DNA of 64,000 nt from a bacterium (GTDB lineage: Bacteria; JACRDZ01; JAQUKH01): the NCBI GenBank assembly GCA_028719205.1, contig JAQUKH010000005.1, forward strand, positions 1-64,000, read 5' to 3'. Numbering within the stretch: the first letter of the stretch is position 1; each line of letters opens with the position of its first letter. Positions 22,352 to 40,830 of the stretch are shown piece by piece. The notes beneath the pieces were generated by a model that worked only from the letters and a program-made list of their open reading frames with translations, had not been told where the DNA came from and made no database searches. The position numbers and the translations under genes were made by a program.

Positions 22352-23668
22352 ATGGCCATATCTTTATCAAAAATACTTAATAACTCACTTAAAGGAATAG
22401 TTCCAAATGAAGAGGAAATAAAGCTTCTTTTGGATATCGAAGATGAAGGATCTTTAAATGAACTGACTTTTATCTCAGGTAAAATAAAGGAGTTAATTTA
22501 CGGCAAAAGGATCGTTCTTTTCACTCCCCTTTATTTAAGCAATGAATGCCTTAATAATTGCCTTTATTGCGCTTTTCGACGCGATAATAAGGAAATACAA
22601 CGAAAAACACTTTCCACTGATGAAATAATTTTGCAGGCACAAACGCTTGAAAAAACCGGTTTTAAACGTGTCCTTCTTGTTGCCGCCGAACATCCAAAAA
22701 AATGTTCCCTTGATTATTTAATAAACGCCGTTAGGACAATTTACGAAAATACCGGTTTGCACATAGTGCATCTCAATGCCGCGCCATATTCAGAAGAGGA
22801 ATTTATAAAATTAAAAAGTTCCGGGATCGGTGTGTTCCAGCTTTTCCAGGAAACTTATCACCGCGAAACATATAAAATAATGCATCCCGGAGGTAAAAAA
22901 AATGATTTTGACTGGCGCAGGCTCGCGATGGATCGCGCTATTTCTGCCGGCATAAAAGATGTCGGAATAGGCGCTCTTTTGGGTTTATTTGATTACAAAT
23001 ACGAAATACTTGAACTTATACGCCACAGCCGCGAACTGGAGGCAAAATTTGGTTTCGGGCCTCACACTATCTCTGTACCGCGCCTGAGGCCGGCTCATGG
23101 CTCAGCATTACTAACTCCGCCATATCCTGTTTCTGACTTCGATTTCAGAAAAATTGTCGCGATACTCCGTTTGGCCGTACCTTATACCGGTATTGTTGTA
23201 ACTACAAGAGAACATTCTTTATTGCGGGATGAAATTATTTCTGCCGGCGCGTCACAGATCAGCGCGGGCTCTCATACGGAACCCGGTGGTTACAGTGAAA
23301 AAGGTTCCTCCCTCACCTCTGAAGACGGCCAATTTTCAACTGCCGATAAACGCACCCTTGAAGAAATTATCAAAATTATTATAGAAAAAAAACTTGTTCC
23401 CAGCCTTTGCACCTCCTGCTACCGCGCGGGACGAACCGGGGAAAATTTTGTAAACAAGGCAAAAAACGGTGAGATCCAGGGATATTGTCTCCCAAACGCG
23501 TTGTTGACACTTGAAGAGTACGCCTTGGATTTTGCCCCGGCCGGAACAAAACAAATAATAGATAAAATGATCAACGATAATATGAAAAATATCCCGGATA
23601 AATTATTTAACCAGTTTAATTTAAAACTAAAAAGAATAAAAAATGGTGAAAGAGACCTATATTTTTAG
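22352..23668 (+). CDS. Tyrosine lyase radical SAM, HydG-type sequence in the ThiH position of a thiamine cluster
   Basis: PLYLSNECLNNCLYC, FQETYH, GPHTISVPR and C-terminal CTSC-x22-C; immediately followed by thiS. Confidence 0.85.
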   Translation: MAISLSKILNNSLKGIVPNEEEIKLLLDIEDEGSLNELTFISGKIKELIYGKRIVLFTPLYLSNECLNNCLYCAFRRDNKEIQRKTLSTDEIILQAQTLEKTGFKRVLLVAAEHPKKCSLDYLINAVRTIYENTGLHIVHLNAAPYSEEEFIKLKSSGIGVFQLFQETYHRETYKIMHPGGKKNDFDWRRLAMDRAISAGIKDVGIGALLGLFDYKYEILELIRHSRELEAKFGFGPHTISVPRLRPAHGSALLTPPYPVSDFDFRKIVAILRLAVPYTGIVVTTREHSLLRDEIISAGASQISAGSHTEPGGYSEKGSSLTSEDGQFSTADKRTLEEIIKIIIEKKLVPSLCTSCYRAGRTGENFVNKAKNGEIQGYCLPNALLTLEEYALDFAPAGTKQIIDKMINDNMKNIPDKLFNQFNLKLKRIKNGERDLYF

Positions 23669-24581: not shown

Positions 24582-25361
24582 ATGTTGAAAAATGATTTTC
24601 TGGAAATCGGCGGGAAAAAATTCAAGTCACGGCTTTTAGTCGGTACCGGGAAATACCCGACTTTTAAAATAATGGCTGAAGCACTTGAGATATCAGGCGC
24701 GGAAATTGTTACTGTCGCGGTCCGCAGGGTAAATCTTACTGACAAATCCCAGGAATCACTGCTTGACTATATTGACACAAAAAAATATACGATCTTGCCG
24801 AATACCGCCGGATGTTTTAACGTTGAAGATGCAGTCCGCACCGCCCGTTTGGGCCGTGAAGTCGGATTATCCAATATGGTTAAACTCGAAGTTATAGGTG
24901 ACCCTAAGACACTTTTCCCCGATACAGCGGGTTTGATCGAGGCTACAAAAATCCTTGTCAAGGAAGGTTTCATAGTTATGCCCTATACTAATGACGATAT
25001 TATCGCCGCGCGTAAATTAGTCGACGCGGGTGCCGCCTGCATTATGCCTTTAGCCGCGCCTATCGGTTCAGGACAGGGAATCCTGAACCGCAATAATATT
25101 ATGATAATCCGGGAACTTATTAAGATCCCGATCATTGTTGATGCCGGAGTTGGTACCGCGTCAGATGCCGCCATCACTATGGAATTAGGCGTAGACGGGG
25201 TTTTAATGAATACCGCGATTGCCGGCGCGAAAGATCCGGTCCTGATGGCCGAGGCGATGAAACAAGCCGTAGAAGCTGGGCATAAGGCATTTATGGCAGG
25301 AAGAATACCTAAAAAACTTTACGCGAACGCGTCCAGTCCAATGGATGGAAAAATAAACTAA
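24582..25361 (+). CDS. thiG: Thiazole synthase
   Basis: [30 protein letters not shown] and [10 protein letters not shown]. Confidence 0.97.
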
Positions 25362-25996
25362 TGTTTTCAAAAAATTATTTTTTAAAATCTAGGCTCTGTC
25401 TGGTTACAGACAGAAATCTATCAAAATATCCGTTAATTAATGCAATAGAAGAAGCTGTCAGCTCCGGCATTGATATGGTACAATTGCGCGAAAAAGATAT
25501 GCAGACAAAAGAATATTTTGAACTTGCGCGCCAGATAAAAATTATTTGTAAAAAATATTCAGCCCTTTTTATTATTAACGACCGTATTGATATAGCCCTG
25601 GCCGTTGAGGCGGACGGCGTTCATCTCGGCTGGAAATCTTTACCTTTTCATATCGCGAGACACCTTTTAGGCAAAGAAAAGATCATTGGGCTTTCCGCGC
25701 ATTCCAAGGATGAGGCTGTCGCGGCGCAGGAAAAGGGCGCGGACTATATTACTCTTGGCCCTGTATTCCCTACTGCTTCAAAAAATGGATTAATTGAACC
25801 GCTCGGCTGTAATATTTTTTCTGATATTAGAAAATCTGTTCGTTTGCCGGTATTCGCGATAGGCGGCATAAAAGAAAATAATATTGGAGAAATAATCAAG
25901 GCTGGTGCTAACGGTATAGCGGTAATTTCGGCGATTTTACAGGCAGACAATATTAAAGAAACAGTAAAAAGATTAACTCCCCCAGGGGGCGTTTAA
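25361..25996 (+). CDS. thiE: Thiamine-phosphate synthase
   Basis: VQLREK, IINDRID, DGVHLG and GPVFPTASK. Confidence 0.95.
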   Translation: MFSKNYFLKSRLCLVTDRNLSKYPLINAIEEAVSSGIDMVQLREKDMQTKEYFELARQIKIICKKYSALFIINDRIDIALAVEADGVHLGWKSLPFHIARHLLGKEKIIGLSAHSKDEAVAAQEKGADYITLGPVFPTASKNGLIEPLGCNIFSDIRKSVRLPVFAIGGIKENNIGEIIKAGANGIAVISAILQADNIKETVKRLTPPGGV

Positions 25997-26006
25997 AATA
26001 TTCACA

Positions 26007-27368
26007 ATGAAACAAAAAAACATTCTCCCAGTTGTTTTAACCATCGCAGGCTCTGATCCCAGCGGCGGCGCGGGTATTCAGGCTGACCTGAAAACATTTA
26101 CCGCGCTGGGAGTTTATGGAATGAGCGTTATTACGGCTATAACTTCACAAAACACCCGGAAAGTAAACTCGGTTTATCCCCTTCCCGCGAAAATAGTCAG
26201 GGATCAGCTTGAGGCAGTTATGTCCGATATTAAACCGGATTTTATTAAGATCGGCATGCTTTCTAACATTGAGATCATAGAGGCGGTCACAAATATACTG
26301 AAAAAATATAAATTTAAAAATGTTATTCTTGACCCGGTAATGGCCTCCAAAAACGGAGACTGCCTTTTGGAAAAAAAGGCCTTTAATATCCTTAAAGAAA
26401 AATTGATACCGCTGACTTTTTTAATTACTCCCAATATTATTGAAGCTGAGATCCTTACCGGTATAAAAATAACCGGGTTCGAATCAATAATAAAAACTGC
26501 TGAAAAATTAGTAAAGATGGGCTCAAAAAATGCCCTCATTAAAGGCGGCCATTTAAAAGATGATAATTGTAAGGATTTATTATTAACCGGAAATAAATAT
26601 GTTATTTTGTCCCGCCGGAGAATTAATACAAAAAACACACACGGAACAGGATGCACTTACAGCTCAGCTATCTCGAGTTTCCTGGCTAAGGGAGAAAAAC
26701 TGGAGATCGCGGTCCAAAAGGCCCGGGATTATCTGCACCTTGCGATAAGAAATTCTATTACGTTAGGAAAAGGCAATGGCCCTGTTAATCATCTCGCGCT
26801 ATTACAAAGACAGGAAGAAATTTCATTAATTCGGGAAGAAATGAAGAACGCGGTCATAAAATTAAATAATTCTAAAATAGCCGGATTGATCCCGGAAGTT
26901 CAATCGAACTTTGCCTATGCTTTAAAAAACGCGGATAATTTAAACGAAGTTTTTGGCTTTCCCGGACGGATCATCCGTTTTAAAGAAGAAATACAATACC
27001 TCGCCGAACCGGATTTAGGCGCGTCAAAACATATGGGTAAGGTCGTCCTGACAGCAATGAGGTATAACCCTTCTTACCGGGCTGCCATGAATATAAAATT
27101 TTCAGATGAAATAATCGGTATTTGCAGAAACGTAAAATTCAAGATAGCGGAGTTTGACCGCAATAAAGAACCTTTGATAATAAAAAATAAGGAAGGCCAG
27201 ACTCTCGAATGGGGAACAGATATCGCTATTAAAAGATCAAAAACAGTTCCTGACATTATTTTTGACCGCGGCGCGAACGGCAAAGAACCGATGATCCGCG
27301 TGCTTGGGAAAGATCCGGATGATGTCGCGAATAAAATTATAAAAATCATTAAACAGGAGCAATCATAA
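26007..27368 (+). CDS. thiD: Bifunctional HMP/HMP-P kinase with C-terminal ThiN domain (ThiDN)
   Basis: IAGSDPSGGAGIQADLKT and HGTGC; C-terminal LIPEVQSN...PGRI...GASKH...GKEPMIRVLG. Confidence 0.92.
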   Translation: MKQKNILPVVLTIAGSDPSGGAGIQADLKTFTALGVYGMSVITAITSQNTRKVNSVYPLPAKIVRDQLEAVMSDIKPDFIKIGMLSNIEIIEAVTNILKKYKFKNVILDPVMASKNGDCLLEKKAFNILKEKLIPLTFLITPNIIEAEILTGIKITGFESIIKTAEKLVKMGSKNALIKGGHLKDDNCKDLLLTGNKYVILSRRRINTKNTHGTGCTYSSAISSFLAKGEKLEIAVQKARDYLHLAIRNSITLGKGNGPVNHLALLQRQEEISLIREEMKNAVIKLNNSKIAGLIPEVQSNFAYALKNADNLNEVFGFPGRIIRFKEEIQYLAEPDLGASKHMGKVVLTAMRYNPSYRAAMNIKFSDEIIGICRNVKFKIAEFDRNKEPLIIKNKEGQTLEWGTDIAIKRSKTVPDIIFDRGANGKEPMIRVLGKDPDDVANKIIKIIKQEQS

Positions 27369-28634
27369 ATGACTTTAAGAGAAAAAGCTATTAATAAAAT
27401 AATTACACAGGAAATGATAAAACTTTCTAAGATCGAAAAAAGAAATCCTGAGGAATTGCGCAAAAAGATCGCTGAAGGCAAAATCGCGGTTCCGCGTAAC
27501 CGGAAACGAAAAACAAAGATCTGCGGTATCGGCGAAGGGTTACGCACAAAGGTTAATGCCAACATAGGCACTTCACCGCTTGCTTCTAACCTGAAGATCG
27601 AAATAAAAAAACTGGAAACAGCGATTCGGGCCGGGACCGATACGATCATGGACCTAAGCTGCGGCGGGAATGTGGATAAAATAAGAAAAGAATTAATTTC
27701 AAGATGCCCGATCCCGTTTGGAACAGTTCCAATCTATCAGGCCGCACAGGAAACTACAAAAAAAGGGAAAAAAATTACTGAGATACCCGTAGAATTATTT
27801 TTTGAAGTAATAGAAAAACAGGCTGAAGACGGCGTGGATTTTATGACCATACACTGCGGTGTAACCCGGCACGTCCTTGAAAAACTGGCTTCGAAAAAAC
27901 GGATCACGGGAATCGTAAGCCGCGGCGGCGCGATCATGGCTTCCTGGATGAAACAAAATAAAAAAGAAAATCCATTTTTTGAAAATTATGACCGTTTATT
28001 AAAGATCACAAAAAAATATGACCTTACCTTGAGCCTGGGCGACGGATTAAGGCCCGGATGCCTCGCCGACGCTACTGATCCCGGACAGATCGAGGAATTA
28101 AAAACACTGGGCAAACTCTGCAAGAAAGCTTGGAGTGAAGGAATTCAGGTCATTATCGAAGGGCCCGGACATGTTCCTATCGATCAGATCAAAAAAAATG
28201 TGGAATTAGAAAAGAAATATACTAACGGCGCCCCTTTTTATTGCCTAGGGCCTTTAGTCACGGATATCGCTCCCGGTTATGACCATATTACCTCGGCCAT
28301 CGGAGCCGCGCTTGCCGCGAGTTATGGCGTGGATTTTATTTGTTATGTTACTCCCGCTGAACATTTAAAATTACCATCGATAAATGATGTAAAAGAAGGC
28401 GTGATTGCGAGCCGTATCGCGGGACACGCCGCTGATATCGCGAAACGTGTTCCGTTCGCTTTAGAATGGGATAAAAAAATGGCGCGCGCGCGAAAAAACC
28501 TTTCATGGAAAGACCAAATGAGGCTGGCTATCGATCCGGAAAAGGCTAAATTACTTCATTCGTTATCTCAGGGAACAAATGGGGAAGAATGCTCAATGTG
28601 CGGAGAATTTTGCGCGATGAAGGTAAAAATATAA
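27369..28634 (+). CDS. thiC: Phosphomethylpyrimidine synthase
   Basis: KVNANIGTS, IVSRGG, LSLGDGLRPG, EGPGHVP and CSMCGEFC. Confidence 0.97.
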   Translation: MTLREKAINKIITQEMIKLSKIEKRNPEELRKKIAEGKIAVPRNRKRKTKICGIGEGLRTKVNANIGTSPLASNLKIEIKKLETAIRAGTDTIMDLSCGGNVDKIRKELISRCPIPFGTVPIYQAAQETTKKGKKITEIPVELFFEVIEKQAEDGVDFMTIHCGVTRHVLEKLASKKRITGIVSRGGAIMASWMKQNKKENPFFENYDRLLKITKKYDLTLSLGDGLRPGCLADATDPGQIEELKTLGKLCKKAWSEGIQVIIEGPGHVPIDQIKKNVELEKKYTNGAPFYCLGPLVTDIAPGYDHITSAIGAALAASYGVDFICYVTPAEHLKLPSINDVKEGVIASRIAGHAADIAKRVPFALEWDKKMARARKNLSWKDQMRLAIDPEKAKLLHSLSQGTNGEECSMCGEFCAMKVKI

Positions 28635-28647
28635 AGTGATCCTGAAT

Positions 28648-29721
28648 TTATTCAGGCGTAACTGAAAGAAGATCAGGATAACACTCAAGGCCGGCCCGAG
28701 CGACAGTTTTAATTAAAATATCTTTTGGCTTGTAACGTTCTTTTCTATATATAACAAATTCCGCTTCGTCATTTTCAGGAGTACCGTCATGCAATGTTAC
28801 GGCATTAGCCCCTGCCATTAATCCTAAATATTGCCCGTCTTTAATAAGTAATTCCAAAGAACTGGTGGAGGGAATAAGCATATTCGGGCACAGAATTCTC
28901 AATATCGCCATGGAATTAAGCGCCGTCAAAATATCGCCCGGCGGGCAATTCGCGTAATTTGACATATCATTTGGAATAAATACAGAAGTACTGCCCATAG
29001 GAATATCCAATTTTTTCATCAGCAAAAGGTCATCGGCCATGCTATCCGTTGTCTGTCCCGGCAAACCCGTGATATTACCGGAACTTACCTGGAAACCAAA
29101 CTTTTTCAACATTTCTATATGAGCTAATCTATTTTCAAAACTATCAGAAGGTTTTATCTTTTTATAAAGTTTTGGGTCCGATGTTTCAAATTTAAGCAAA
29201 TATCTTTCGACACCGGCCTCTTTCAACTTTTTGTATTTATCCGCGGACAGGTTCCCAAAACTGCAGATAAAAGTCAGATCCAAATATTTAGCCTTCACTT
29301 CTTTGAGTAATTTATACAGCCTTTGGAAGTAAATATCCGCAGATATCTCTCCCGCCTGGATCATTATCACTCTGCGCCCGTTGCAATAAAGTTTTTCAAT
29401 CTCTCTTAATAATTCACTGTCGCTTAAAATATACCTTTTTATACTCGAATATTTATTCATACCGCAATAATTACATGCCTGCTCGCATATATTTGAATAT
29501 TCAATAACGCTTCGGACTTCAACTTTTTTCCCAAAGACTTCATCCCTTATTTTTCGCGCGTATTCAAATAAACCTTCCTGCTCACCGCCGCGGAATAGCA
29601 AAGCTTTTACAATATTCGTTTTTTTATTAAGATCATTAAATATATTCTTTTCTGATCGCATTATGTCCTTGACTAAATTTCCGAATTTAAGTATATTCGA
29701 TCGGAATGTTTGATTATACAA
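28648..29721 (-). CDS. Radical SAM protein of the BioB/HydE/PylB (BATS) family
   Basis: VIEYSNICEQACNYCG, RYLLKFETSD, GNITGLPGQT and AGANAV. Confidence 0.8.
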   Translation of the reverse strand: MYNQTFRSNILKFGNLVKDIMRSEKNIFNDLNKKTNIVKALLFRGGEQEGLFEYARKIRDEVFGKKVEVRSVIEYSNICEQACNYCGMNKYSSIKRYILSDSELLREIEKLYCNGRRVIMIQAGEISADIYFQRLYKLLKEVKAKYLDLTFICSFGNLSADKYKKLKEAGVERYLLKFETSDPKLYKKIKPSDSFENRLAHIEMLKKFGFQVSSGNITGLPGQTTDSMADDLLLMKKLDIPMGSTSVFIPNDMSNYANCPPGDILTALNSMAILRILCPNMLIPSTSSLELLIKDGQYLGLMAGANAVTLHDGTPENDEAEFVIYRKERYKPKDILIKTVARAGLECYPDLLSVTPE

Positions 29722-29749
29722 TAAATTTATATTAATTTATTTTTTTATT

Positions 29750-30646
29750 ATGATGCAATCTCATTTAATTTATGGAATGCTTGGGGGGCTAGCCGCTTTA
29801 GGTTCAGCCGTCGCGTGGGCCTTCGGTTCGATCTTATTCGAAAAACTCGGGAACGATGTTTCTCCGCTCGGCATGAACCTTGGGAAAGGAATAATAGGTA
29901 TTTTGTATCTTGGAATACTTCTTTTGCTGATCGGCATGGAACCGATAAACAACCGTGATTTTTTATTTCTTGCGCTAAGCGGCTTATTAGGAATTGCACT
30001 TGGAGACACCTTTTTTTTCAAAGCCTTAATGCATTTAGGCCCGCGCTTAACGATCCTCCTGGAAACTCTGGGCCCCGTACTCACGGTTATTATGGCAGTC
30101 CTTTTTTTACATGAAAGGCCGTCTTCTCTTGCATGGACGGGAAGCATATTTACGATCGCAGGAGTTACATGGGTACTTTTTGAATCCGCTCCTATGGAAA
30201 AACTAAAAGAAAACTGGATATCCGGAGTCAAATACGCGCTGTTATCTTCTTTCTGCATGTCACTGGGAATAATTTTCGCAAAAATAGGCGTATCATCAAC
30301 TTCCGCGCTGCAAGGTACATTAATCCGGTTTTTGTTCAGTGTTATCGGCCTTACGCTCTGGGGAACAGCAACCAGAGAAATCAAGAACTGGCTTCTGCCT
30401 TTTAAAAATATCCGGTCGTTAAAACTGCTTCTTCTTACGGTTTTCATCGCGGTTTTCGGAGGTTTCTGGCTTTTTCTTGTCGCCCTTAAATATATTGATG
30501 CCTCTATCGCCACGATACTTAATTCAACCACCCCGTTATTTATCCTTCCGATGGTTGTATTTATATCAAAAGAAAAAATATCTCCCAGGGCGATCATAGG
30601 AGCAGTTATCGCAATAGCGGGGATCGGATTAATATTTGTCGGATAG
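29750..30646 (+). CDS. DMT/EamA family transporter
   Basis: About 10 TM helices in two EamA repeats; SGLLGIALGDTFFF and KEKISPRAIIG. Confidence 0.9.
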   Translation: MMQSHLIYGMLGGLAALGSAVAWAFGSILFEKLGNDVSPLGMNLGKGIIGILYLGILLLLIGMEPINNRDFLFLALSGLLGIALGDTFFFKALMHLGPRLTILLETLGPVLTVIMAVLFLHERPSSLAWTGSIFTIAGVTWVLFESAPMEKLKENWISGVKYALLSSFCMSLGIIFAKIGVSSTSALQGTLIRFLFSVIGLTLWGTATREIKNWLLPFKNIRSLKLLLLTVFIAVFGGFWLFLVALKYIDASIATILNSTTPLFILPMVVFISKEKISPRAIIGAVIAIAGIGLIFVG

Positions 30647-30652
30647 GATCAA

Positions 30653-32074
30653 TTAAGGCTGAAAATCGTCATACGGATTTAATTTGCCTTGCGCGTATGC
30701 CGTTCTTGCAAATGGCATATAGTCAGGATGGTGAAACTGGTGGCATATTTCGTCCGCAAAAAGGATCCCAAGCGGGGTAAGACCAAGCATTTTATCGTTT
30801 TCATAAAGTAAATTGAATTCTTTTAATTTTTCTATCTTCTTCCTGAAAATTGTATCCAATGACACTCCGGTTATTCTCTGGTAATATTTCTTGTTAACTT
30901 CCCGGTTTTTTAAAGGTAATATAAGCGCCCAACGCAATTGGGCATCCCTGTTTCTTACCAGCCCCCTGTCAACGGGCAGTTTACCCTGGTTTATCAAATA
31001 ATAATATTTATCAAAATACTGGGTATTCAGGCCGAATCTGTCTCTCAGGCTGCTGAACGCGGTCAGCCCAAAACCTATCTCATCAAAAAGGTTGCAGCAC
31101 TGGTTATTCGCATAGTGGGAAAAATCATCTTGTGTTTTACTGAAAACACGCCTCAAATTTTCATTATACCCGTTTTGAGATAAAAGTAAGATCGCAATTT
31201 CTTTCATCATAATTGCCCGTTTGAGCCCAAAATATTCCTTTCTCTCTTTAACGGATTTTTTCAAGATCGATCCCATATGATCCCCATATGGAATAATTTT
31301 GAGGCGATATAACTGGATCTCATCCGCACCAAGGGAAACAGCTTTTTCCACCGTCTCGATCCAGGCTTCAATTGTCTGTCCGGGATACCCATAAATAAAT
31401 TCTATATTAACCTTAAATCCCATTTTTTTTGTAATATCGATAGCTTCAATTGCTTCTTTCACGGTATGCGGACGGTTCATCTTTTTTAGTATTTCATCAT
31501 CAAGTGACTGGATCCCTATAGTTAACCGGTCCACACCAAATGATTTTAATATTTTAAGCCTCTCCCCTCCTTCCTTCCCGAGAAGCGTTAAAGGATCTAC
31601 GTCATAAGAAAATTGAGTGCATGAGTTCAAATCCACCCTACTTGAAAATGAACGCAGAAATTTTTCAAGCCTTGCAGGAATCAGGTAGGTGGGAGTCCCG
31701 CCGCCTATAAGGATTGAACGGGGTTTGATCGTTTTTAAACCCAGGCGGTTCATATAAATATCCATTTCCTTCTCCAGCATATTCAGGTAATGGTCTTTTT
31801 CCTCATCAGGGGCCCCGATCTTAACCGGATAGTGGCAAAAAACACAATATTTCATACAAAAAGGAATATGAACATAAATGTCAAACAAATTACCGGATGG
31901 GTTGGCATATCCTTTAAACAAGGTTTTTTCATCAATGGGCGGATACATATTGATCGGAGGGTAATGGACAGAAGGGAAAAATTGCCCGTCGAGACAAATA
32001 AGCCCTTCTTTCTGCAATTTATTTAAATCTTTTATTCGTTCTTCCGCGTCTTTAAGCAGCTTTGCCTTTATCAT
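30653..32074 (-). CDS. HemN-like (class C) radical SAM enzyme
   Basis: YVHIPFCMKYCVFCHY, IGGGTPTYL, RLTIGIQS and IYGYPGQT; HemN_C-like C-terminus (LTPLGILFADEI). Confidence 0.9.
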   Translation of the reverse strand: MIKAKLLKDAEERIKDLNKLQKEGLICLDGQFFPSVHYPPINMYPPIDEKTLFKGYANPSGNLFDIYVHIPFCMKYCVFCHYPVKIGAPDEEKDHYLNMLEKEMDIYMNRLGLKTIKPRSILIGGGTPTYLIPARLEKFLRSFSSRVDLNSCTQFSYDVDPLTLLGKEGGERLKILKSFGVDRLTIGIQSLDDEILKKMNRPHTVKEAIEAIDITKKMGFKVNIEFIYGYPGQTIEAWIETVEKAVSLGADEIQLYRLKIIPYGDHMGSILKKSVKERKEYFGLKRAIMMKEIAILLLSQNGYNENLRRVFSKTQDDFSHYANNQCCNLFDEIGFGLTAFSSLRDRFGLNTQYFDKYYYLINQGKLPVDRGLVRNRDAQLRWALILPLKNREVNKKYYQRITGVSLDTIFRKKIEKLKEFNLLYENDKMLGLTPLGILFADEICHQFHHPDYMPFARTAYAQGKLNPYDDFQP

Positions 32075-32102
32075 AATTCCTGCTATGTAATAACTATTTC
32101 AC

Positions 32103-32196
32103 AAAAAAAACCCCCATATCAAACACGACAAAACTTTTGTCCATCTTTAAAACTAAGCATAATGAAAACGGACATAATCTGTTTGATATGGAGGTT
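32103..32196 (-). terminator. Long hairpin with U-tract (terminator or attenuator) between the peptide ORF and the radical SAM gene
   Basis: Minus-strand AACCUCCAUAUCAAACA pairs with UGUUUGAUAUGGGGGUU, followed by a U-run. The G-U wobble works only on the minus strand. Confidence 0.8.
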
Positions 32197-32220
32197 ACTT
32201 ATAACTGCCTGGCATAAAAA

Positions 32221-32286
32221 TTAACAAGGATGAACATAAGAACTAGCTACAATTTTTGGAGCAAAATACTTAATTTTATTTTTCAT
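32221..32286 (-). CDS. 21-aa peptide, candidate RiPP precursor or leader peptide
   Basis: GGAAGGAG RBS, then MKNKIKYFAPKIVASSYVHPC*; upstream TTGACT...TATAAT promoter-like sequence near 32420-32451. Confidence 0.6.
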   Translation of the reverse strand: MKNKIKYFAPKIVASSYVHPC

Positions 32287-32466
32287 TTACTACTCCTTCC
32301 TTTTAAAAAACTCTTTCTAAATGATTATACTTAATTACAAGAAAAAAGTTTCCTTCTTATTTGTTTTATTTATCGTCACATTTGTCAATTATTTTATACA
32401 TAAAAAAGCATTCGGTTTATTATTATAATATGTTTTATTACCTTTAGTCAAGGAAAAATATGGGAC

Positions 32467-34131
32467 CTAATAGGGATATGGAATCAGTATACGCTCAGCA
32501 TCTTTTCCCTTATCCTTAGCTTTGTGTTTTTCAATATAGCTGTCCCACTCCAGCAATTTTTCCTTCAGTTTTGCTGTTATATCAGGTTTTTCAGAAGCTA
32601 TGTTTTTTTGCTCAAATGGATCATTTTTTAAATCATAAAGTTCAATCTCATCTATAGCTATTTTCTTCCTGGAAATAAAACTCCACCATGAAACCCTTTC
32701 CAGAAGAGATTTATCTTTGCGCAATATTAATTTCCAATCATTGGTTCTTATCGCAATATCATTGGGAGGATATTGCGGGTCATACTTTTCAAAATTTTGT
32801 CTAAGTATATTCCCATATTCCAGTTTTTTTTCATTTCCAAGGGATTGATCCATTTTCCACCTGAAATCCGTTCCCTTAAAGAACATATATTCCCAAAATG
32901 GAGTCCTTGTAGAATAAACAAATTCATTCAACCCGGCGCTTTTATCATTTTCAATCAAAGGCATTAAATTAATGCCCTGGGCCTCATGATTAATGGGAAT
33001 ATCCAGATAATCAAGCAGTGTAGGCATAATATCAAGACCCTGGGCCTGTGCAAGAATTCTCTTCCCTTTAAATTTACTTCCGGGAAATTTAATAATTAAG
33101 GCATTCTTTACTTCGGTATCATATATATCATAATGAGTAAAATATCCATGTTCACCTAAATCTTCACCATGAATGGAATGCAGAACAATAATAGTATTAT
33201 CGCTCAGGCCCAAACTCTCAACCAGAGAAAATAACCTTCCAATAAATTCATCGGTATAATATATACCCGCGTCATATCTTCCGATTATATGTTGAATATC
33301 TTTTTCCGATAAATTGTAACTGTCGGAAGAATCAAAATAATAAACATTTTTATAAATATGTGATATCAAATTGTAACTGATACTGCCATCTTTAGGCCAA
33401 ATATCCTGTTCATTGCCAAAACGGTAAAAAAACGGAGTGTAATCCGGAGCATCAAATTTGTTTTTATAAGAGGGAGGTATATCTCTGGCATACGGCCAAT
33501 GGACTGTCCCTATTGGTATCCATAAGAAAAATTTCTTATCTTTATTATCCTTAAGCCATTGCAGTGCTCCTTCGGGATTTTCTCTTTCACCTGCAAATTT
33601 TATTTTTCCCCCGGGAATTCCTGCTCTAGTGGTATCCGCAGGCTCAAAAACGTCAAACGATTTCCCAAATATTTTTTTAGATTGTATGACAAGCCCGTCT
33701 TTTCTTGTTACTTCAACAATAAATTCAGGACAACCTAAAAAAGCCGCATTTGTATAACCATAGTATTTCAAAATAGAAGGAAGTGTTTTTTCTGAAACAT
33801 TCGCCGATAATGCTTCATATGAAGTCATCCCGTTCACGCGGGGCTCCTGTGATGTAAAAATACTCATTTGGCTTATAGGTGTAAAAGCGGCTTGAGTTAT
33901 AAAATTTTCAAACAATACCGATTTTTCAGCAAAATCATCGATATTTTTACTTGTTTCCCTCTTATAACCATAACAGCCCAGATGGTCGTTCCTGAGAGTG
34001 TCTATGGAAATAAATATAATATTTGTATTTTCGTATTTTGGGCTGACCGCTTTTTCATTCTTTTCCCCATTAACAGACACACCGTTTAATAAAAAAAGAA
34101 TTGTTAAAAACAGAAATACGATCTTTTTCAT
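32467..34131 (-). CDS. Secreted sulfatase-fold protein with non-canonical active site
   Basis: Signal peptide, NIIFISIDTLRNDHLGCYGY, DIMPTLLD and ELYDLKNDPFE; no C/S-x-P-x-R motif. Confidence 0.82.
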   Translation of the reverse strand: MKKIVFLFLTILFLLNGVSVNGEKNEKAVSPKYENTNIIFISIDTLRNDHLGCYGYKRETSKNIDDFAEKSVLFENFITQAAFTPISQMSIFTSQEPRVNGMTSYEALSANVSEKTLPSILKYYGYTNAAFLGCPEFIVEVTRKDGLVIQSKKIFGKSFDVFEPADTTRAGIPGGKIKFAGERENPEGALQWLKDNKDKKFFLWIPIGTVHWPYARDIPPSYKNKFDAPDYTPFFYRFGNEQDIWPKDGSISYNLISHIYKNVYYFDSSDSYNLSEKDIQHIIGRYDAGIYYTDEFIGRLFSLVESLGLSDNTIIVLHSIHGEDLGEHGYFTHYDIYDTEVKNALIIKFPGSKFKGKRILAQAQGLDIMPTLLDYLDIPINHEAQGINLMPLIENDKSAGLNEFVYSTRTPFWEYMFFKGTDFRWKMDQSLGNEKKLEYGNILRQNFEKYDPQYPPNDIAIRTNDWKLILRKDKSLLERVSWWSFISRKKIAIDEIELYDLKNDPFEQKNIASEKPDITAKLKEKLLEWDSYIEKHKAKDKGKDAERILIPYPY

Positions 34132-36119
34132 TTTTTGTAATCCTCCCCTATAGACTTAAGGTGTTTAAATAGTTTTTGCTCAAGTTCATAGGCGATCCTT
34201 TTTTCTTTTTCAGCCAGATTATTCAACTCTTTCGGATCATCTCTTAAATTATACAACTCTCTTTCCCGTGTGTCTATTGAATGTATATATTTCCATCCAT
34301 CGCTTGTCCTTAACGAACGTTTAAATGTATACGATAAATAATCGGTTTCAGAAAAAGCATCTAATTTTAAATCCTCTCCATTCATTAAAGGAACCAGGGT
34401 AACACCCTGCATTTGATCTTTTATGATTTCATTATATTTAATATCCAGCATATCCAGCACAGTCGGCATAATATCGAGTGTTCTTACCTGGTTTTCTATT
34501 ACACTCCCTTTCTTGTCCGGAACTTTGATTATCAAAGGGACTCGAATTAATTCTTCATAGAGGCTGAATCCATGGTCAAATCTTTTATGTTCGTAAAACT
34601 CATTTCCTGAACCGGATGAAACAACTATTATTGTTTTATTCCCCAATCCCATTTTATCAAATTCATCAAAAAAAGTACCTAATTTTTTATCCGCTTCATA
34701 TATTTTCGCGTCATACCACGATTCCCAAAACTTTATATCTTCATCTGCCATATTTAAAAATCCCTCATTTACGCTTAAATCCCTTAATTTCCAATACTCA
34801 TCCACTGTACCTTTATATTTTCCCTTGTAGTTTGGATCAGCAAATTGGTTCTTGAAATCAGCGGGAAGTTGATAACGTCCGTGTACATCATAGCCCTGAA
34901 TAAATAAGAAAAAATTTTCATCCCTGTTTTTATTGATCCATTCTAAGGCCATAGGTAAAACGAGATCAAACCCCGCAAAAGTAATCTTATCATAATAAAT
35001 ATCAAACCCTAAATTATATCCGAAATTCCCGGCTACTCCGGCATCTCCGGTAAAACCGGCAGTTGAGTAACCGTTTTTTTTCAAAACTTGCGCCAGAGTA
35101 ACAGCGGAAGGAGAAAGTTCAGACAGATTAGAAAAAACCTTCTCTTTATCCGTATATATGCTATATTTATTAAGGATCTTATGTTGTGAAGGATATAAAG
35201 ATGTAAACCATGACATAAACGAAGGCAGCGTCCAACTGGAAGGGCTGACAGCATTTTTAAACAAAAAAGCGTTTTTAGAAAATTTATCGAGATTGGGCGT
35301 AGTATCTCTAAAATAACCGGAGGCTCCTGTATGATTTACCCCCAGAGGTTCAAATCCAATTATAATCAAATTATAATTTTTATTCGCATTCCTGTCTTTT
35401 TTAATGTCAGATGATTTTTCTTGTACGGTTTCAACTTTTGAACGGCGGACAATCGACCCGAAGATGCTTAAAACATCTTTTTTATCAAATTTCTCTTTAG
35501 GAATAAATAGCTCGATCTGATACAATTTTTTTTCTTTTTCGTTATAAATGAATATTAAAGCTCCGCGGTATGCTATAAGTTCCTCCGCACCGACTCCATA
35601 TGTAAACCTGGATGTACTCGACAAAATGAGGAAAGCAGTCTTTACCCCCTCTATTTCAATATATTCAACTTTGGGTTTAAACTCATCCGGGTATTCTATG
35701 GTATTTGAAATCATCCCCGGATAGGGGGAAGGTGTTTGATAATAGAGTGAATTTATTATATACTTTTTTTCTTCGATGCGCCTTTCCGCGGAATTGTTAT
35801 CAATATTATTTATAACTTCAATTTTAATTACACTCCCGTTTTTTTCCGCGGAAACCGTAAAAAAAGTATTTTCCCATTCATACATTGATATATTTTTTTG
35901 AATGACAAAGTCATCCGCTTTGCTTATTGATATCCCAAGCTGATCAAAAACTTCTCCTAAACTTGAGTTAAACGGTCCCGATTTATCGGGATCGCTTTTA
36001 CTCATTGTTATCCTCGGAGGGGATAATTTCTTTGTATCACAGTCTGTCCTGCTTAAGAAAGTATGTATAATTAAAAAAAATACGAACAATGGAATAGCAG
36101 TTCTATTTTTTTTCTTCAT
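34128..36119 (-). CDS. Sulfatase-fold protein with extra N-terminal domain
   Basis: TTPNLDKF, SSWTLPSFMSWFTSLYP, LYEELIRVPLII and ELYNLRDDP. Confidence 0.82.
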   Translation of the reverse strand: MKKKNRTAIPLFVFFLIIHTFLSRTDCDTKKLSPPRITMSKSDPDKSGPFNSSLGEVFDQLGISISKADDFVIQKNISMYEWENTFFTVSAEKNGSVIKIEVINNIDNNSAERRIEEKKYIINSLYYQTPSPYPGMISNTIEYPDEFKPKVEYIEIEGVKTAFLILSSTSRFTYGVGAEELIAYRGALIFIYNEKEKKLYQIELFIPKEKFDKKDVLSIFGSIVRRSKVETVQEKSSDIKKDRNANKNYNLIIIGFEPLGVNHTGASGYFRDTTPNLDKFSKNAFLFKNAVSPSSWTLPSFMSWFTSLYPSQHKILNKYSIYTDKEKVFSNLSELSPSAVTLAQVLKKNGYSTAGFTGDAGVAGNFGYNLGFDIYYDKITFAGFDLVLPMALEWINKNRDENFFLFIQGYDVHGRYQLPADFKNQFADPNYKGKYKGTVDEYWKLRDLSVNEGFLNMADEDIKFWESWYDAKIYEADKKLGTFFDEFDKMGLGNKTIIVVSSGSGNEFYEHKRFDHGFSLYEELIRVPLIIKVPDKKGSVIENQVRTLDIMPTVLDMLDIKYNEIIKDQMQGVTLVPLMNGEDLKLDAFSETDYLSYTFKRSLRTSDGWKYIHSIDTRERELYNLRDDPKELNNLAEKEKRIAYELEQKLFKHLKSIGEDYKK

Positions 36120-39225: not shown

Positions 39226-40830
39226 TTACCAATAACCATGTTCTCTGGCATCCTTAATAATTTTCTCCGGGATTTCTTGAGTCGATGGACGGGCCGAGCT
39301 AAACTCTTTTGACCATTTAGCCCACTTTTCCATCTCTTTTTGTAAATTTTCTTTTATCACCGGATGTTTATCAGTAAGATTGATAAGCTCATCAGGGTCA
39401 TTTTTAATATCGTATAATTCGTAGGTCTCTTCATTTACTTGTTTATCTTTGTTTTTATCGGAACCCGAAAACTGAATCTCGTGGATCAGCTTCCATTTAT
39501 AATCTCTTATAGATTCATTTATACTCTGTAATATAGGCCGCGGCGGCGCCGATACGGCTGTTGTTGTGCTATCATGAAAAGGGCTATTCATGTTAAACTC
39601 TGAACCTGCATAGACATAATCATTAACGGAAATATTGCTCTTTATCAACGGAATTAAAGTCTTTCCCTGCATCCCCCCGGTAAAAGGAATATCCAATAAT
39701 TCCAATACCGTAGGCATAACATCAATTAACTGCGCCAGGCCATTTATTCTTTTACCTTCTCTCTGCGGTATCTTGATCATTAATGGAACATGGACGACGT
39801 CATCGTAGAGAGTGCCTCTTGCTATGCCGCCGCGGCCAAACCGGCCATGCAGAGCAAACATCTCTCCGTGTTCAGAAAAAATAATAATAATCGTCTTTTT
39901 AAGAACATTCTCATCGAGAGAACTTAAAAAATCGCCAACCTTAGAATCCACAGACAAAACCTCTTCATCATAGAGATCCCTCAGATAATCAATATCGTCC
40001 TGAGTCAAAATAACTGTCATTTTCTCGGGTTTGGGGATCGCCGGCTTTTGTATTCTTGCAGGTTGAGTCCCTGCAAAAGGGTCAGCTAATGATATATAAG
40101 AGGCAACATACTTATTATCAGAATTCTTAATGCCTATTAGGCTAAATCCGGAGTAAACGATGATATTTTTCCCTTTAGGATCGCTGAATATACCTTTAAA
40201 TTTTTCAGGAGGGGTAAAGGGAGGATGTGCATCATAACCATGAATAAATAAAAAGAATTTTTTATCCGAATTTCTGGAAAGCCAATCCCTGGCTTGAGTT
40301 AACGTTACGTCAAATCCCGTAAAATTAGGGTTATTGTCCGTTTCTTCAAATCCCAACATATGGCCAAATTCTTTATAATAGTCCAATCCACCGGTAAAAG
40401 CCGCTGTTTTATATCCGCTTTTTTTTAAAATATCCGGCAAGGTACTGATACTCTTATTAAGCAGGTCCGTCCTGTAACGCTGCATAACTTTATGGGTATA
40501 GGGATATAAGGACGTAAAAAGAGATGTTGCAACCGGTAGTGTCCACGAATCAGGGGAAAATGCATTATCGAAAACTGCCGCATTTTGTGACCATTTATCA
40601 AGATAAGGGGTCGTGTTCCTTTTATAACCGTAAAGGCTCATATGCTTTACGCCAACGTTGTTTATCGAAATCATGATAAGATTATAACCGCCATAGCGGC
40701 AGGATCCAATTTCTTCTTTTTCAATCCCTAAACTGATTGTCGTAACAACGAAGAAATTAGATAAAAAAACTACCATGAATATTTTTGACAAAACCGCCGT
40801 CTTTAAATTTCCCGTTATCAATAATTTCAT
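39226..40830 (-). CDS. Sulfatase-fold protein with non-canonical active site
   Basis: YGYKRNTTPYLD, DSWTLPVATSLFTSLYP, FSEHGE and ELYDIKNDPDE. Confidence 0.82.
   Translation of the reverse strand: MKLLITGNLKTAVLSKIFMVVFLSNFFVVTTISLGIEKEEIGSCRYGGYNLIMISINNVGVKHMSLYGYKRNTTPYLDKWSQNAAVFDNAFSPDSWTLPVATSLFTSLYPYTHKVMQRYRTDLLNKSISTLPDILKKSGYKTAAFTGGLDYYKEFGHMLGFEETDNNPNFTGFDVTLTQARDWLSRNSDKKFFLFIHGYDAHPPFTPPEKFKGIFSDPKGKNIIVYSGFSLIGIKNSDNKYVASYISLADPFAGTQPARIQKPAIPKPEKMTVILTQDDIDYLRDLYDEEVLSVDSKVGDFLSSLDENVLKKTIIIIFSEHGEMFALHGRFGRGGIARGTLYDDVVHVPLMIKIPQREGKRINGLAQLIDVMPTVLELLDIPFTGGMQGKTLIPLIKSNISVNDYVYAGSEFNMNSPFHDSTTTAVSAPPRPILQSINESIRDYKWKLIHEIQFSGSDKNKDKQVNEETYELYDIKNDPDELINLTDKHPVIKENLQKEMEKWAKWSKEFSSARPSTQEIPEKIIKDAREHGYW

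Follow-up and report, generated by a model that had tools for sequence, protein, structure and literature searches.

The window, a 64,000-nucleotide stretch of bacterial DNA (contig JAQUKH010000005.1, positions 1 to 64,000), carries on its minus strand a gene of 21 codons at 32286..32221, the span including the stop codon. We refer to it as the His-Pro-Cys peptide gene; it was identified from its open reading frame and its homologues, and its translation is MKNKIKYFAPKIVASSYVHPC. The gene upstream of it encodes a sulfatase, and the peptide copy stands behind it. Further along the minus strand follow a terminator-like hairpin and then a group of three larger genes, two of them encoding radical SAM enzymes.

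The peptide gene and its flanking signals

A Shine-Dalgarno sequence, GGAAGGAG, lies at 32300-32293 on the minus strand, 6 nt ahead of the ATG. All nine homologues examined have a purine-rich, GG-containing site 5' of the start, which in seven of them includes GGAGG. Both the reading frame and its strong ribosome-binding site had been proposed in the first-pass annotation, and both hold. The promoter that was also assigned to the gene holds in part: the site TTGACT-18-TATAAT is present at 32451-32422 on the minus strand and matches the consensus at 11 of 12 positions, but such sites are just as frequent in shuffled sequence (32 observed in the region vs 30.5 +/- 5.4, hence not enriched), and the site is weak evidence.

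Behind the gene, also on the minus strand, an imperfect long hairpin (32194-32111) runs directly into eight consecutive T residues (32110-32103), giving an intrinsic-terminator-like end to the peptide transcript, as had been described. Folding of the 326-nt leader yielded -71.4 kcal/mol (z = -3.73), and none of 100 shuffles was as stable. The outer stem and the T-run are kept in a second genome of the same genus (G001), in which a convergent thiC comes next. The hairpin can be assigned to the peptide gene because it is kept behind the peptide there, without the HemN-like gene following. A search of Rfam over positions 25000-36000 returned no match at E <= 1, and therefore no known riboswitch or leader lies there. 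The idea that the peptide is an attenuator or leader peptide was dropped because it is conserved in unrelated contexts.

In the homologue alignment, all 16 third codon positions vary, compared with 9/16 first and 9/16 second positions. The copies in the window's genome and in a more distant genome of the phylum (G004) differ by seven synonymous and six non-synonymous codon changes, and a serine codon has passed from AGT to TCC between them; the G004 homologue is GC-rich and keeps its amino acids through synonymous changes. TAA, TGA and TAG all serve as stop codons among the homologues. At the same time, 24 nt of the open reading frame are identical across four genomes of the phylum. The intergenic DNA has no repeat copies in its own genome, where only short, weak matches were seen. 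Judged by this codon-position variation and by its conservation as a peptide, the open reading frame is a genuine coding gene, above chance, and its reading as a conserved micro-gene of the precursor-peptide type is supported.

By sequence comparison, the peptide belongs to a widespread family of 17-22 residues with a basic N-terminus and the pattern Y-x2-P-x2-V-x4-[VI]-H-P-C-stop. Columns Y7, P10, H19, P20 and C21 are invariant in 15/15 aligned sequences, and the window peptide carries all of them. A leader motif YxxPx(L/I) had been proposed; its Y-x-x-P part, the lasso-type leader motif bound by an RRE, is thus invariant, but no Leu or Ile is conserved two places after the proline. Five of the six genomes of its phylum keep the peptide, with homologues in G001, G002 (cut by a contig end), G003 and G004, and also far outside the phylum. 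Six family members had no match in Pfam or NCBIfam at E <= 10. In an exact look-up, five of these six, including the window peptide, were absent from the protein collection, and the sixth was the hypothetical protein Gmet_3586 of Geobacter metallireducens GS-15. A strict back-translated pattern found two loci among genome contigs, apparently the G003 and G004 matches, in a search that may leave out own-genus records; its three matches among metagenome contigs did not encode the motif.

The adjacent HemN-like cassette

The gene closest to the terminator, at 30653-32074 on the minus strand, encodes a HemN-like radical SAM protein with the Pfam domains Radical_SAM and HemN_C, as the first-pass annotation had it. 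It is followed by an EamA-family transporter gene on the plus strand (29750-30646; Pfam EamA, 142 bits) and, on the minus strand again, by a HydE/PylB/BioB-like radical SAM gene at 28648-29721 (Pfam Radical_SAM and Fer4_12). The last of these had been placed in the BATS family, but no BATS domain was found in it at E <= 0.001; HydE (TIGR03956) is its best NCBIfam match, with 206.7 bits where the cut-off is 254.6, and PylB and BioB come next. The EamA assignment is confirmed, but the gene faces the HemN-like gene with its 3' end and the HydE-like one with its 5' end. Since it lies on the strand opposite to both neighbours, the three genes do not form one operon.

The HemN-like protein falls under all NCBIfam cut-offs. 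It is closest to the STM4012 family (175 bits vs 380), and the other equivalogs score 160.7 vs 324.95 (HemN), 145.3 vs 205.4 (HemW) and 122.8 vs 400 (ChuW). With HemN, HemW, ChuW/HutW and STM4012 it shares the Radical_SAM plus HemN_C architecture, but it travels with HydE-like, methyltransferase and EamA genes; haem genes and the peptide do not accompany it. Among 47 loci with orthologues of 44-70% identity, a methyltransferase gene is found at 39, a HydE-like gene at 37 and an EamA gene at 34. For the methyltransferase of this type of cassette, the best match in the window's own genome reaches 35.6 bits at a contig end, with no clear orthologue.

The HemN-like enzyme had been proposed as the partner of the peptide, a proposal that failed when the surroundings of its orthologues were scanned: within as much as 4 kb in either direction, none of the 47 loci contained a member of the peptide family. 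In the reverse direction, no HemN-like orthologue was found at E <= 1e-20 in G001 and G002, which belong to the same genus and have the peptide, and G003 and G004 contain only paralogues of 26-29% identity. In G001 all three cassette genes are missing at this place, and the peptide gene and its terminator abut the convergent thiC. The comparison of these loci indicates that the HemN-like, EamA and HydE-like genes make up a conserved cassette of their own and are not the peptide's partners, and that the cassette sits between the peptide terminator and thiC in the window's own genome only.

The combination of HemN-like, HydE-like, methyltransferase and EamA genes is kept in many phyla and corresponds to no pathway described so far.

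The GeoRSP system and the peptide family

The window's genome encodes, on a different contig (C8, about 40.3-42.5 kb), an adjacent trio consisting of a PqqD-family protein, an rSAM/SPASM protein and a SPASM-only protein. Their composition and order are those of GeoRSP (TIGR04302/TIGR04303/TIGR04304), a catalogued system for which no peptide model exists. Against TIGR04303, the C8 rSAM/SPASM protein reaches 408.3 bits (408 in a whole-genome search), which exceeds the cut-off of 400. The other two have their best models in TIGR04302 (61.3 vs 100) and TIGR04304 (100.9 vs 300), and, in contrast to catalogued GeoRSP, neither of these proteins reaches its cut-off in this phylum. By eye, the 302-aa C8 protein lacks an N-terminal CxxxCxxC. 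A locus search with the C8 rSAM protein recovered one close locus only. A further difference from GeoRSP elsewhere is that the peptide gene is detached: it stands on contig C5 and the cassette on C8, without physical linkage, and therefore their linkage in this genome rests on its relatives.

In these relatives, the peptide gene is often embedded in or placed beside the cassette. The order in G004 is PqqD, rSAM/SPASM, peptide, SPASM-only, and in G003, where linkage is partial, the peptide gene is directly ahead of the SPASM-only gene. The full series is represented within one phylum: a peptide gene inside the cassette, one partly separated from it, and one standing wholly apart. In 5/5 GeoRSP-bearing genomes of a second phylum, the peptide gene is flanked by the two SPASM genes. 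Within the class of a Geobacteraceae metagenome-assembled genome, where two cases were inspected in full, it lies 49-218 nt from the rSAM gene in at least 29 genomes, and 7.45-7.80 kb from it on the same contig in 12 further ones. In cupin-type GeoRSP clusters, the 1.5 kb around the rSAM gene contain no family member; the peptide gene stands about 7.5 kb away from the enzymes, next to one for a NosD-like protein. The C-terminus of the cupin loosely resembles the peptide.

The two also occur in the same genomes. In a sample of 251 genomes from this class, about a third of which have GeoRSP, the motif was found at a single threshold in 73 of the 80 GeoRSP bearers vs 3 of the 171 others; these are raw counts that ignore kinship. 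The pattern had no match in the remaining 7/80 bearers, and one genome (G269) has five motif matches and no rSAM match at E <= 1e-80. Among 401 mixed genomes, all 12 bearers of TIGR04303 had a family member, with looser thresholds (two to three mismatches) used on GeoRSP bearers only. A reversed-pattern control gave no match anywhere. Outside the class, GeoRSP is present in several small phyla. Unlinked copies of the peptide gene stand behind diverse large genes, encoding multihaem cytochromes, fn3 or Ig-like proteins, or a B12-rSAM protein, and therefore leave room for a role other than that of a substrate.

Gene order and co-occurrence support the C8 PqqD, rSAM/SPASM and SPASM-only proteins as the partner of the peptide, although adjacency never proves a peptide's substrate status. 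In the literature searched, with subscription journals and supplements outside its scope, we found nothing on the peptide, Gmet_3586 or the GeoRSP system.

Proposed role of the peptide

Taken together, the genomic patterns suggest that the peptide is the product of a translated micro-gene and probably the ribosomal substrate of the GeoRSP trio. Its transcript would start at its own promoter, end at the hairpin terminator and carry no other gene. The N-terminal Y-x-x-P part would be held by the PqqD protein, while the rSAM/SPASM enzyme would modify the invariant C-terminal [VI]-H-P-C. The modification could be an oxidative decarboxylation of the terminal Cys, like the one that MftC carries out on a terminal Tyr, or a thioether or carbon-carbon cross-link. 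From the leader and core division drawn by the first-pass annotation, the core idea agrees with the conserved C-terminal half, but the HemN-like and HydE-like enzymes drop out as the modifiers. As to a lasso-type leader, Y7 and P10 are invariant (15/15) and the cassette includes a PqqD protein as the putative binder.

Similar arrangements are known. Mycofactocin is made from the MftA peptide with the PqqD-like chaperone MftB and the rSAM/SPASM enzyme MftC, and the PQQ system comprises PqqA, PqqD and PqqE. With the former, the present system shares a short peptide with a conserved C-terminal target, a PqqD-type chaperone and an rSAM/SPASM enzyme. However, the peptide ends in H-P-C and not G-V-Y, a second, SPASM-only paralogue is present, no MftD, MftE or MftF genes were seen here, and the C8 rSAM/SPASM protein reaches 176 bits on the MftC model, under the cut-off of 265. 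The likeness to PQQ lies in the tiny precursor, the PqqD chaperone and the rSAM/SPASM enzyme, and PqqE is among the nearest solved structures (6c8v, E = 8e-17). The peptide has no counterpart of PqqA's Glu/Tyr pair, however, pqqB and pqqC genes are absent here, and the score on the PqqE model is 128 bits vs a cut-off of 381. The best solved match is SkfB (6efn, E = 7e-18). The sactipeptide and ranthipeptide maturases SkfB, CteB and PapB are likewise rSAM/SPASM enzymes and form a bond between a Cys sulfur and a carbon within one peptide, but the present family has a single Cys at the very C-terminus and far shorter precursors, and the corresponding models score far under their cut-offs (e.g. 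PapB, 88.9 vs 340).

It is rather unlikely that the peptide is instead an unmodified small protein, for example a thiol-, metal- or haem-binding partner or an assembly factor, working with the wider GeoRSP neighbourhood of beta-helix NosD-like and OpuAC-like proteins, cytochromes and permeases while the rSAM pair acts elsewhere. Such a role would agree with the extra copies directly behind genes for a multihaem cytochrome and other large secreted-type proteins, with an invariant H-P-C that could bind metal, and with the cupin-type clusters, which place the peptide 7.5 kb from the enzymes and near the NosD-like gene. Against it, in at least 35 genomes the gene lies between the two SPASM genes or at most 218 nt from the rSAM gene, a PqqD-family peptide chaperone is always in the cassette, and size and C-terminal conservation recall PqqA and MftA.

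Modification by the adjacent HemN-like and/or HydE-like enzymes, with export through EamA, appears very improbable. HemN-like enzymes such as TbtI and NosN can act on peptides, and the genes are physically adjacent in one genome, but the peptide is found at 0/47 HemN-like loci, the same-genus genomes G001 and G002 have no orthologue at the threshold used and G003 and G004 only distant paralogues, the three genes are missing where the G001 peptide and terminator abut thiC, EamA is on the opposite strand, and a terminator stands between the peptide and the HemN-like gene. Scarcely credible is a chance reading frame or a non-coding RNA (leader, attenuator or sRNA) 5' of the HemN-like gene: an AT-rich region, the 24 identical nucleotides and the structured hairpin downstream could be read in this way, but the GC-rich G004 homologue keeps its residues through synonymous changes, every third position is variable, the sequence is kept across unrelated contexts and phyla, Rfam gave no match, and the genome has no repeat copies.

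If the peptide is the substrate of the GeoRSP trio, its product is conceivably, by analogy with PQQ and mycofactocin, a new peptide-derived redox cofactor or prosthetic group and not an antibiotic, an extension that we put forward tentatively and regard as having a low probability. The GeoRSP pair would make it from [VI]-H-P-C, one conceivable route being oxidative decarboxylation at the terminal Cys with subsequent cyclisation, and extracytoplasmic redox proteins would use it, for example the multihaem cytochromes whose genes precede extra peptide copies.

Neighbourhood alone can mislead: in this window it suggested a radical-SAM cassette that is unrelated to the peptide. A defined substrate candidate of 17-22 residues makes GeoRSP, which is catalogued but unstudied, directly testable, and the locus indicates that a peptide gene can stand far from its enzymes as a terminator-bounded, stand-alone unit.

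Conservation of the peptide gene

The first-pass annotation had described a 21-aa ORF with a ribosome-binding site and a long hairpin behind it, an observation that proved largely right. The ORF (32286-32221, minus strand) encodes MKNKIKYFAPKIVASSYVHPC, with the ribosome-binding site GGAAGGAG lying 6 nt 5' of its ATG. It is followed on the same strand by a long imperfect hairpin (32194-32111) and eight T (32110-32103), and the 326-nt leader has a folding energy of -71.4 kcal/mol, with z = -3.73 relative to 100 shuffles. The promoter-like site that had also been claimed does exist (TTGACT-18-TATAAT, 32451-32422, minus strand), shortly after the upstream sulfatase-family gene ends, but such sites are equally frequent in real and shuffled sequence (32 versus 30.5). 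Three sulfatase-family genes with Pfam Sulfatase and SGSH_C domains occupy 32467-36119 and 39226-40830 of the minus strand. Within 25000-36000, we found no Rfam match at E ≤ 1 and no TPP riboswitch.

The intergenic DNA matched two genomes of the same genus (G001 and G002) and one from another family of the phylum (G003), and the ORF itself was its best-conserved part. The translations read MEKKIKYFSPKIVASSYIHPC in G001 and ...KYMEPKVVASSYVHPC in G003, while the copy in G002 is cut by a contig end. Using a back-translated pattern, we found a further homologue with GC-rich codons, MKKEYEKPAVVASSYIHPC, in G004, another genome of the phylum. Among nine homologues, variation affected 16 of 16 third codon positions, nine first and nine second positions. 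Synonymous changes preserved the residues Tyr, Pro, Ser, His, Pro and Cys, each of the three stop codons was in use, and a purine-rich, GG-containing ribosome-binding site preceded every copy (GGAGG in seven). The sequence is thus under purifying selection as a peptide. A 15-sequence alignment had no gaps from the Tyr to the C-terminus, with Y, P, H, P and C invariant. No Pfam or NCBIfam model matched six family members at E ≤ 10, and the one member for which an identical 20-mer is catalogued appears there simply as 'hypothetical protein Gmet_3586'.

The neighbouring HemN-like cassette

Three genes beside the peptide had been proposed as its partners. The gene at 30653-32074 (minus strand) is HemN-like as annotated, with Radical_SAM and HemN_C domains. 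The next (29750-30646) is indeed an EamA gene, but lies on the plus strand, opposite to the peptide. The gene at 28648-29721 (minus strand) encodes a radical SAM protein, but no BATS domain was detectable in it; it is HydE/PylB/BioB-like, with a HydE score of 206.7, below the cut-off of 254.6. Beyond this cassette follow ThiC and a ThiD-ThiN fusion on the plus strand, near which a third radical SAM gene (22352-23668, 438 aa) does carry a BATS domain.

A search for related loci returned 47 with HemN-like relatives (44-70% identity), spanning Omnitrophota, cyanobacteria, Verrucomicrobiota, Desulfobacterota, Bacteroidota, methanogens and others. They included a HydE-like gene in 37 cases, an EamA gene in 34 and, in 39, a methyltransferase of ~390 aa with an N-terminal extension, which is absent from the window and has no clear copy in its genome. 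The cassette thus composed recurs across many bacterial phyla and methanogens, and no curated family matched it. Peptide orthologues had been expected upstream of the HemN-like homologues; none of the 47 loci had a related short ORF within the 450 nt upstream, and scanning the 384,145 bases retrieved in six frames turned up no family member, just four chance 'HPC-stop' strings. In G001, an epimerase gene stands on one side of the peptide and its conserved hairpin, and a convergent thiC (86% identity to the window copy) followed by thiD-thiN stands on the other; the HemN-like, EamA and HydE-like genes are all absent from the locus. No HemN-like orthologue was found at E ≤ 1e-20 in G001 (98% complete) or G002 (92%), and G003 and G004 contained only paralogues of 26-29% identity. 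In the present genome, the cassette of three genes therefore just happens to sit between the peptide terminator and thiC. These results refute the proposed partnership: the HemN-like gene is part of a separate cassette.

Co-occurrence with GeoRSP genes

In G003, the gene directly after the peptide encodes a SPASM-domain protein, best matched in NCBIfam by the SPASM protein of GeoRSP, a trio of PqqD-family, radical SAM/SPASM and SPASM-only proteins. The order in G004 is PqqD-family protein, radical SAM/SPASM, peptide, SPASM-only. TIGR04303, the radical SAM/SPASM model, was found in all six genomes of the phylum. In the present genome, the trio lies on another contig (C8), where the 342-aa radical SAM/SPASM protein scores 408.3 bits (cut-off 400), while the PqqD and SPASM-only proteins flanking it have TIGR04302 (61.3, below the cut-off of 100) and TIGR04304 (100.9, below 300) as best matches. 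After this trio come one OpuAC-like gene and several beta-helix genes. OpuAC-like binding proteins and NosD-like beta-helix proteins stand beside GeoRSP genes in the phylum (L074, on C8; L064, on contig C14 of G003) and in clusters of the Geobacteraceae class (L173), and may also belong to the system. The cassette is split in one family of the phylum (L075, contig C4 of G003; L127, contig C270 of G005; L064), with PqqD and radical SAM/SPASM together behind a 259-aa ORF and SPASM-only elsewhere, directly 3' of the peptide gene.

Among 401 mixed genomes, 12 carried TIGR04303 at E ≤ 1e-90. The pattern Y-x2-P-[KR]-x2-[AG]-x-S-x-[VI]-H-P-C-stop (≤1 mismatch) matched seven, six of them TIGR04303 bearers; the seventh match lies within a 432-aa ORF of another frame, with Gln replacing His. 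Looser scans, applied to GeoRSP bearers only, supplied those without a strict match, giving a family member in 12 of 12. In a second small phylum, five of six genomes had the radical SAM gene, each with a 17-18-codon family gene between radical SAM/SPASM and SPASM-only (e.g. MKYIKPKAKGISSVHPC). At four loci (L139, L140, L177, L178), the start of the gene 3' of SPASM-only resembles, by eye, that of a cysteine desulfurase or other class-V aminotransferase-like protein.

We then considered 251 genomes of the class holding the Geobacteraceae MAG of locus L033. The radical SAM gene was present in 80 at E ≤ 1e-80 (78 above cut-off) and the peptide pattern, at a single threshold of ≤2 mismatches for all genomes, in 76; 73 genomes had both, seven GeoRSP only, three the peptide only and 168 neither (Fisher p = 7e-51, relatedness ignored). 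Two of the peptide-only matches look like chance, while the third genome carries five that look good. As a control, the reversed pattern gave no match in any genome. Among the matches listed, the peptide lay 49-218 nt from the radical SAM gene in at least 29 genomes; at least 12 had it on the contig of that gene at a distance of 7.45-7.80 kb, and at least four at 11-20 kb. Two adjacent loci examined whole read PqqD, radical SAM/SPASM, peptide, SPASM-only. The 7.5-kb type runs multihaem cytochrome, peptide, NosD-like beta-helix protein, CarboxypepD_reg protein, OpuAC-like protein, ResB-like protein, ArsP-type permease, cupin, PqqD, radical SAM/SPASM, SPASM-only.

Extra unlinked copies occur in two phyla 60-120 nt downstream of genes for multihaem cytochromes c with 3-10 CXXCH motifs (among L147, L148, L156, L158, L162 and L173). 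Others follow a B12-radical SAM gene or genes for surface-type proteins with fn3 or Big_1 domains; the window peptide follows a sulfatase-family gene.

Partner and proposed chemistry

The peptide family is coding and conserved, and its members accompany GeoRSP genes across genomes, often lying within the cassette itself. Judged from these gene associations, the most likely partner of the window peptide is the GeoRSP trio on the other contig. A search at the level of titles and listings returned no relevant paper on the peptide, the GeoRSP system or the HemN-like cassette. The suggestion that the peptide is of precursor type, its leader marked by Y-x-x-P, gained support; the family is conserved, with Y and P invariant. 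A PqqD-family protein is present every time in the peptide-associated system; the K/R-rich N-terminal Y-x-x-P segment would be the leader held by PqqD, and the C-terminal [VI]-H-P-C would be the core. In every copy the stop codon directly follows Cys, which suggests that the reactive end is this free C-terminal residue. Among characterised NCBIfam families, the best-scoring relatives of the GeoRSP radical SAM enzyme are AhbD, NirJ and MftC, which catalyse oxidative decarboxylation or removal of carboxylate side chains. Given these relatives and the terminal Cys, MftC-like decarboxylation of that Cys and a Cys thioether cross-link would be about equally likely.
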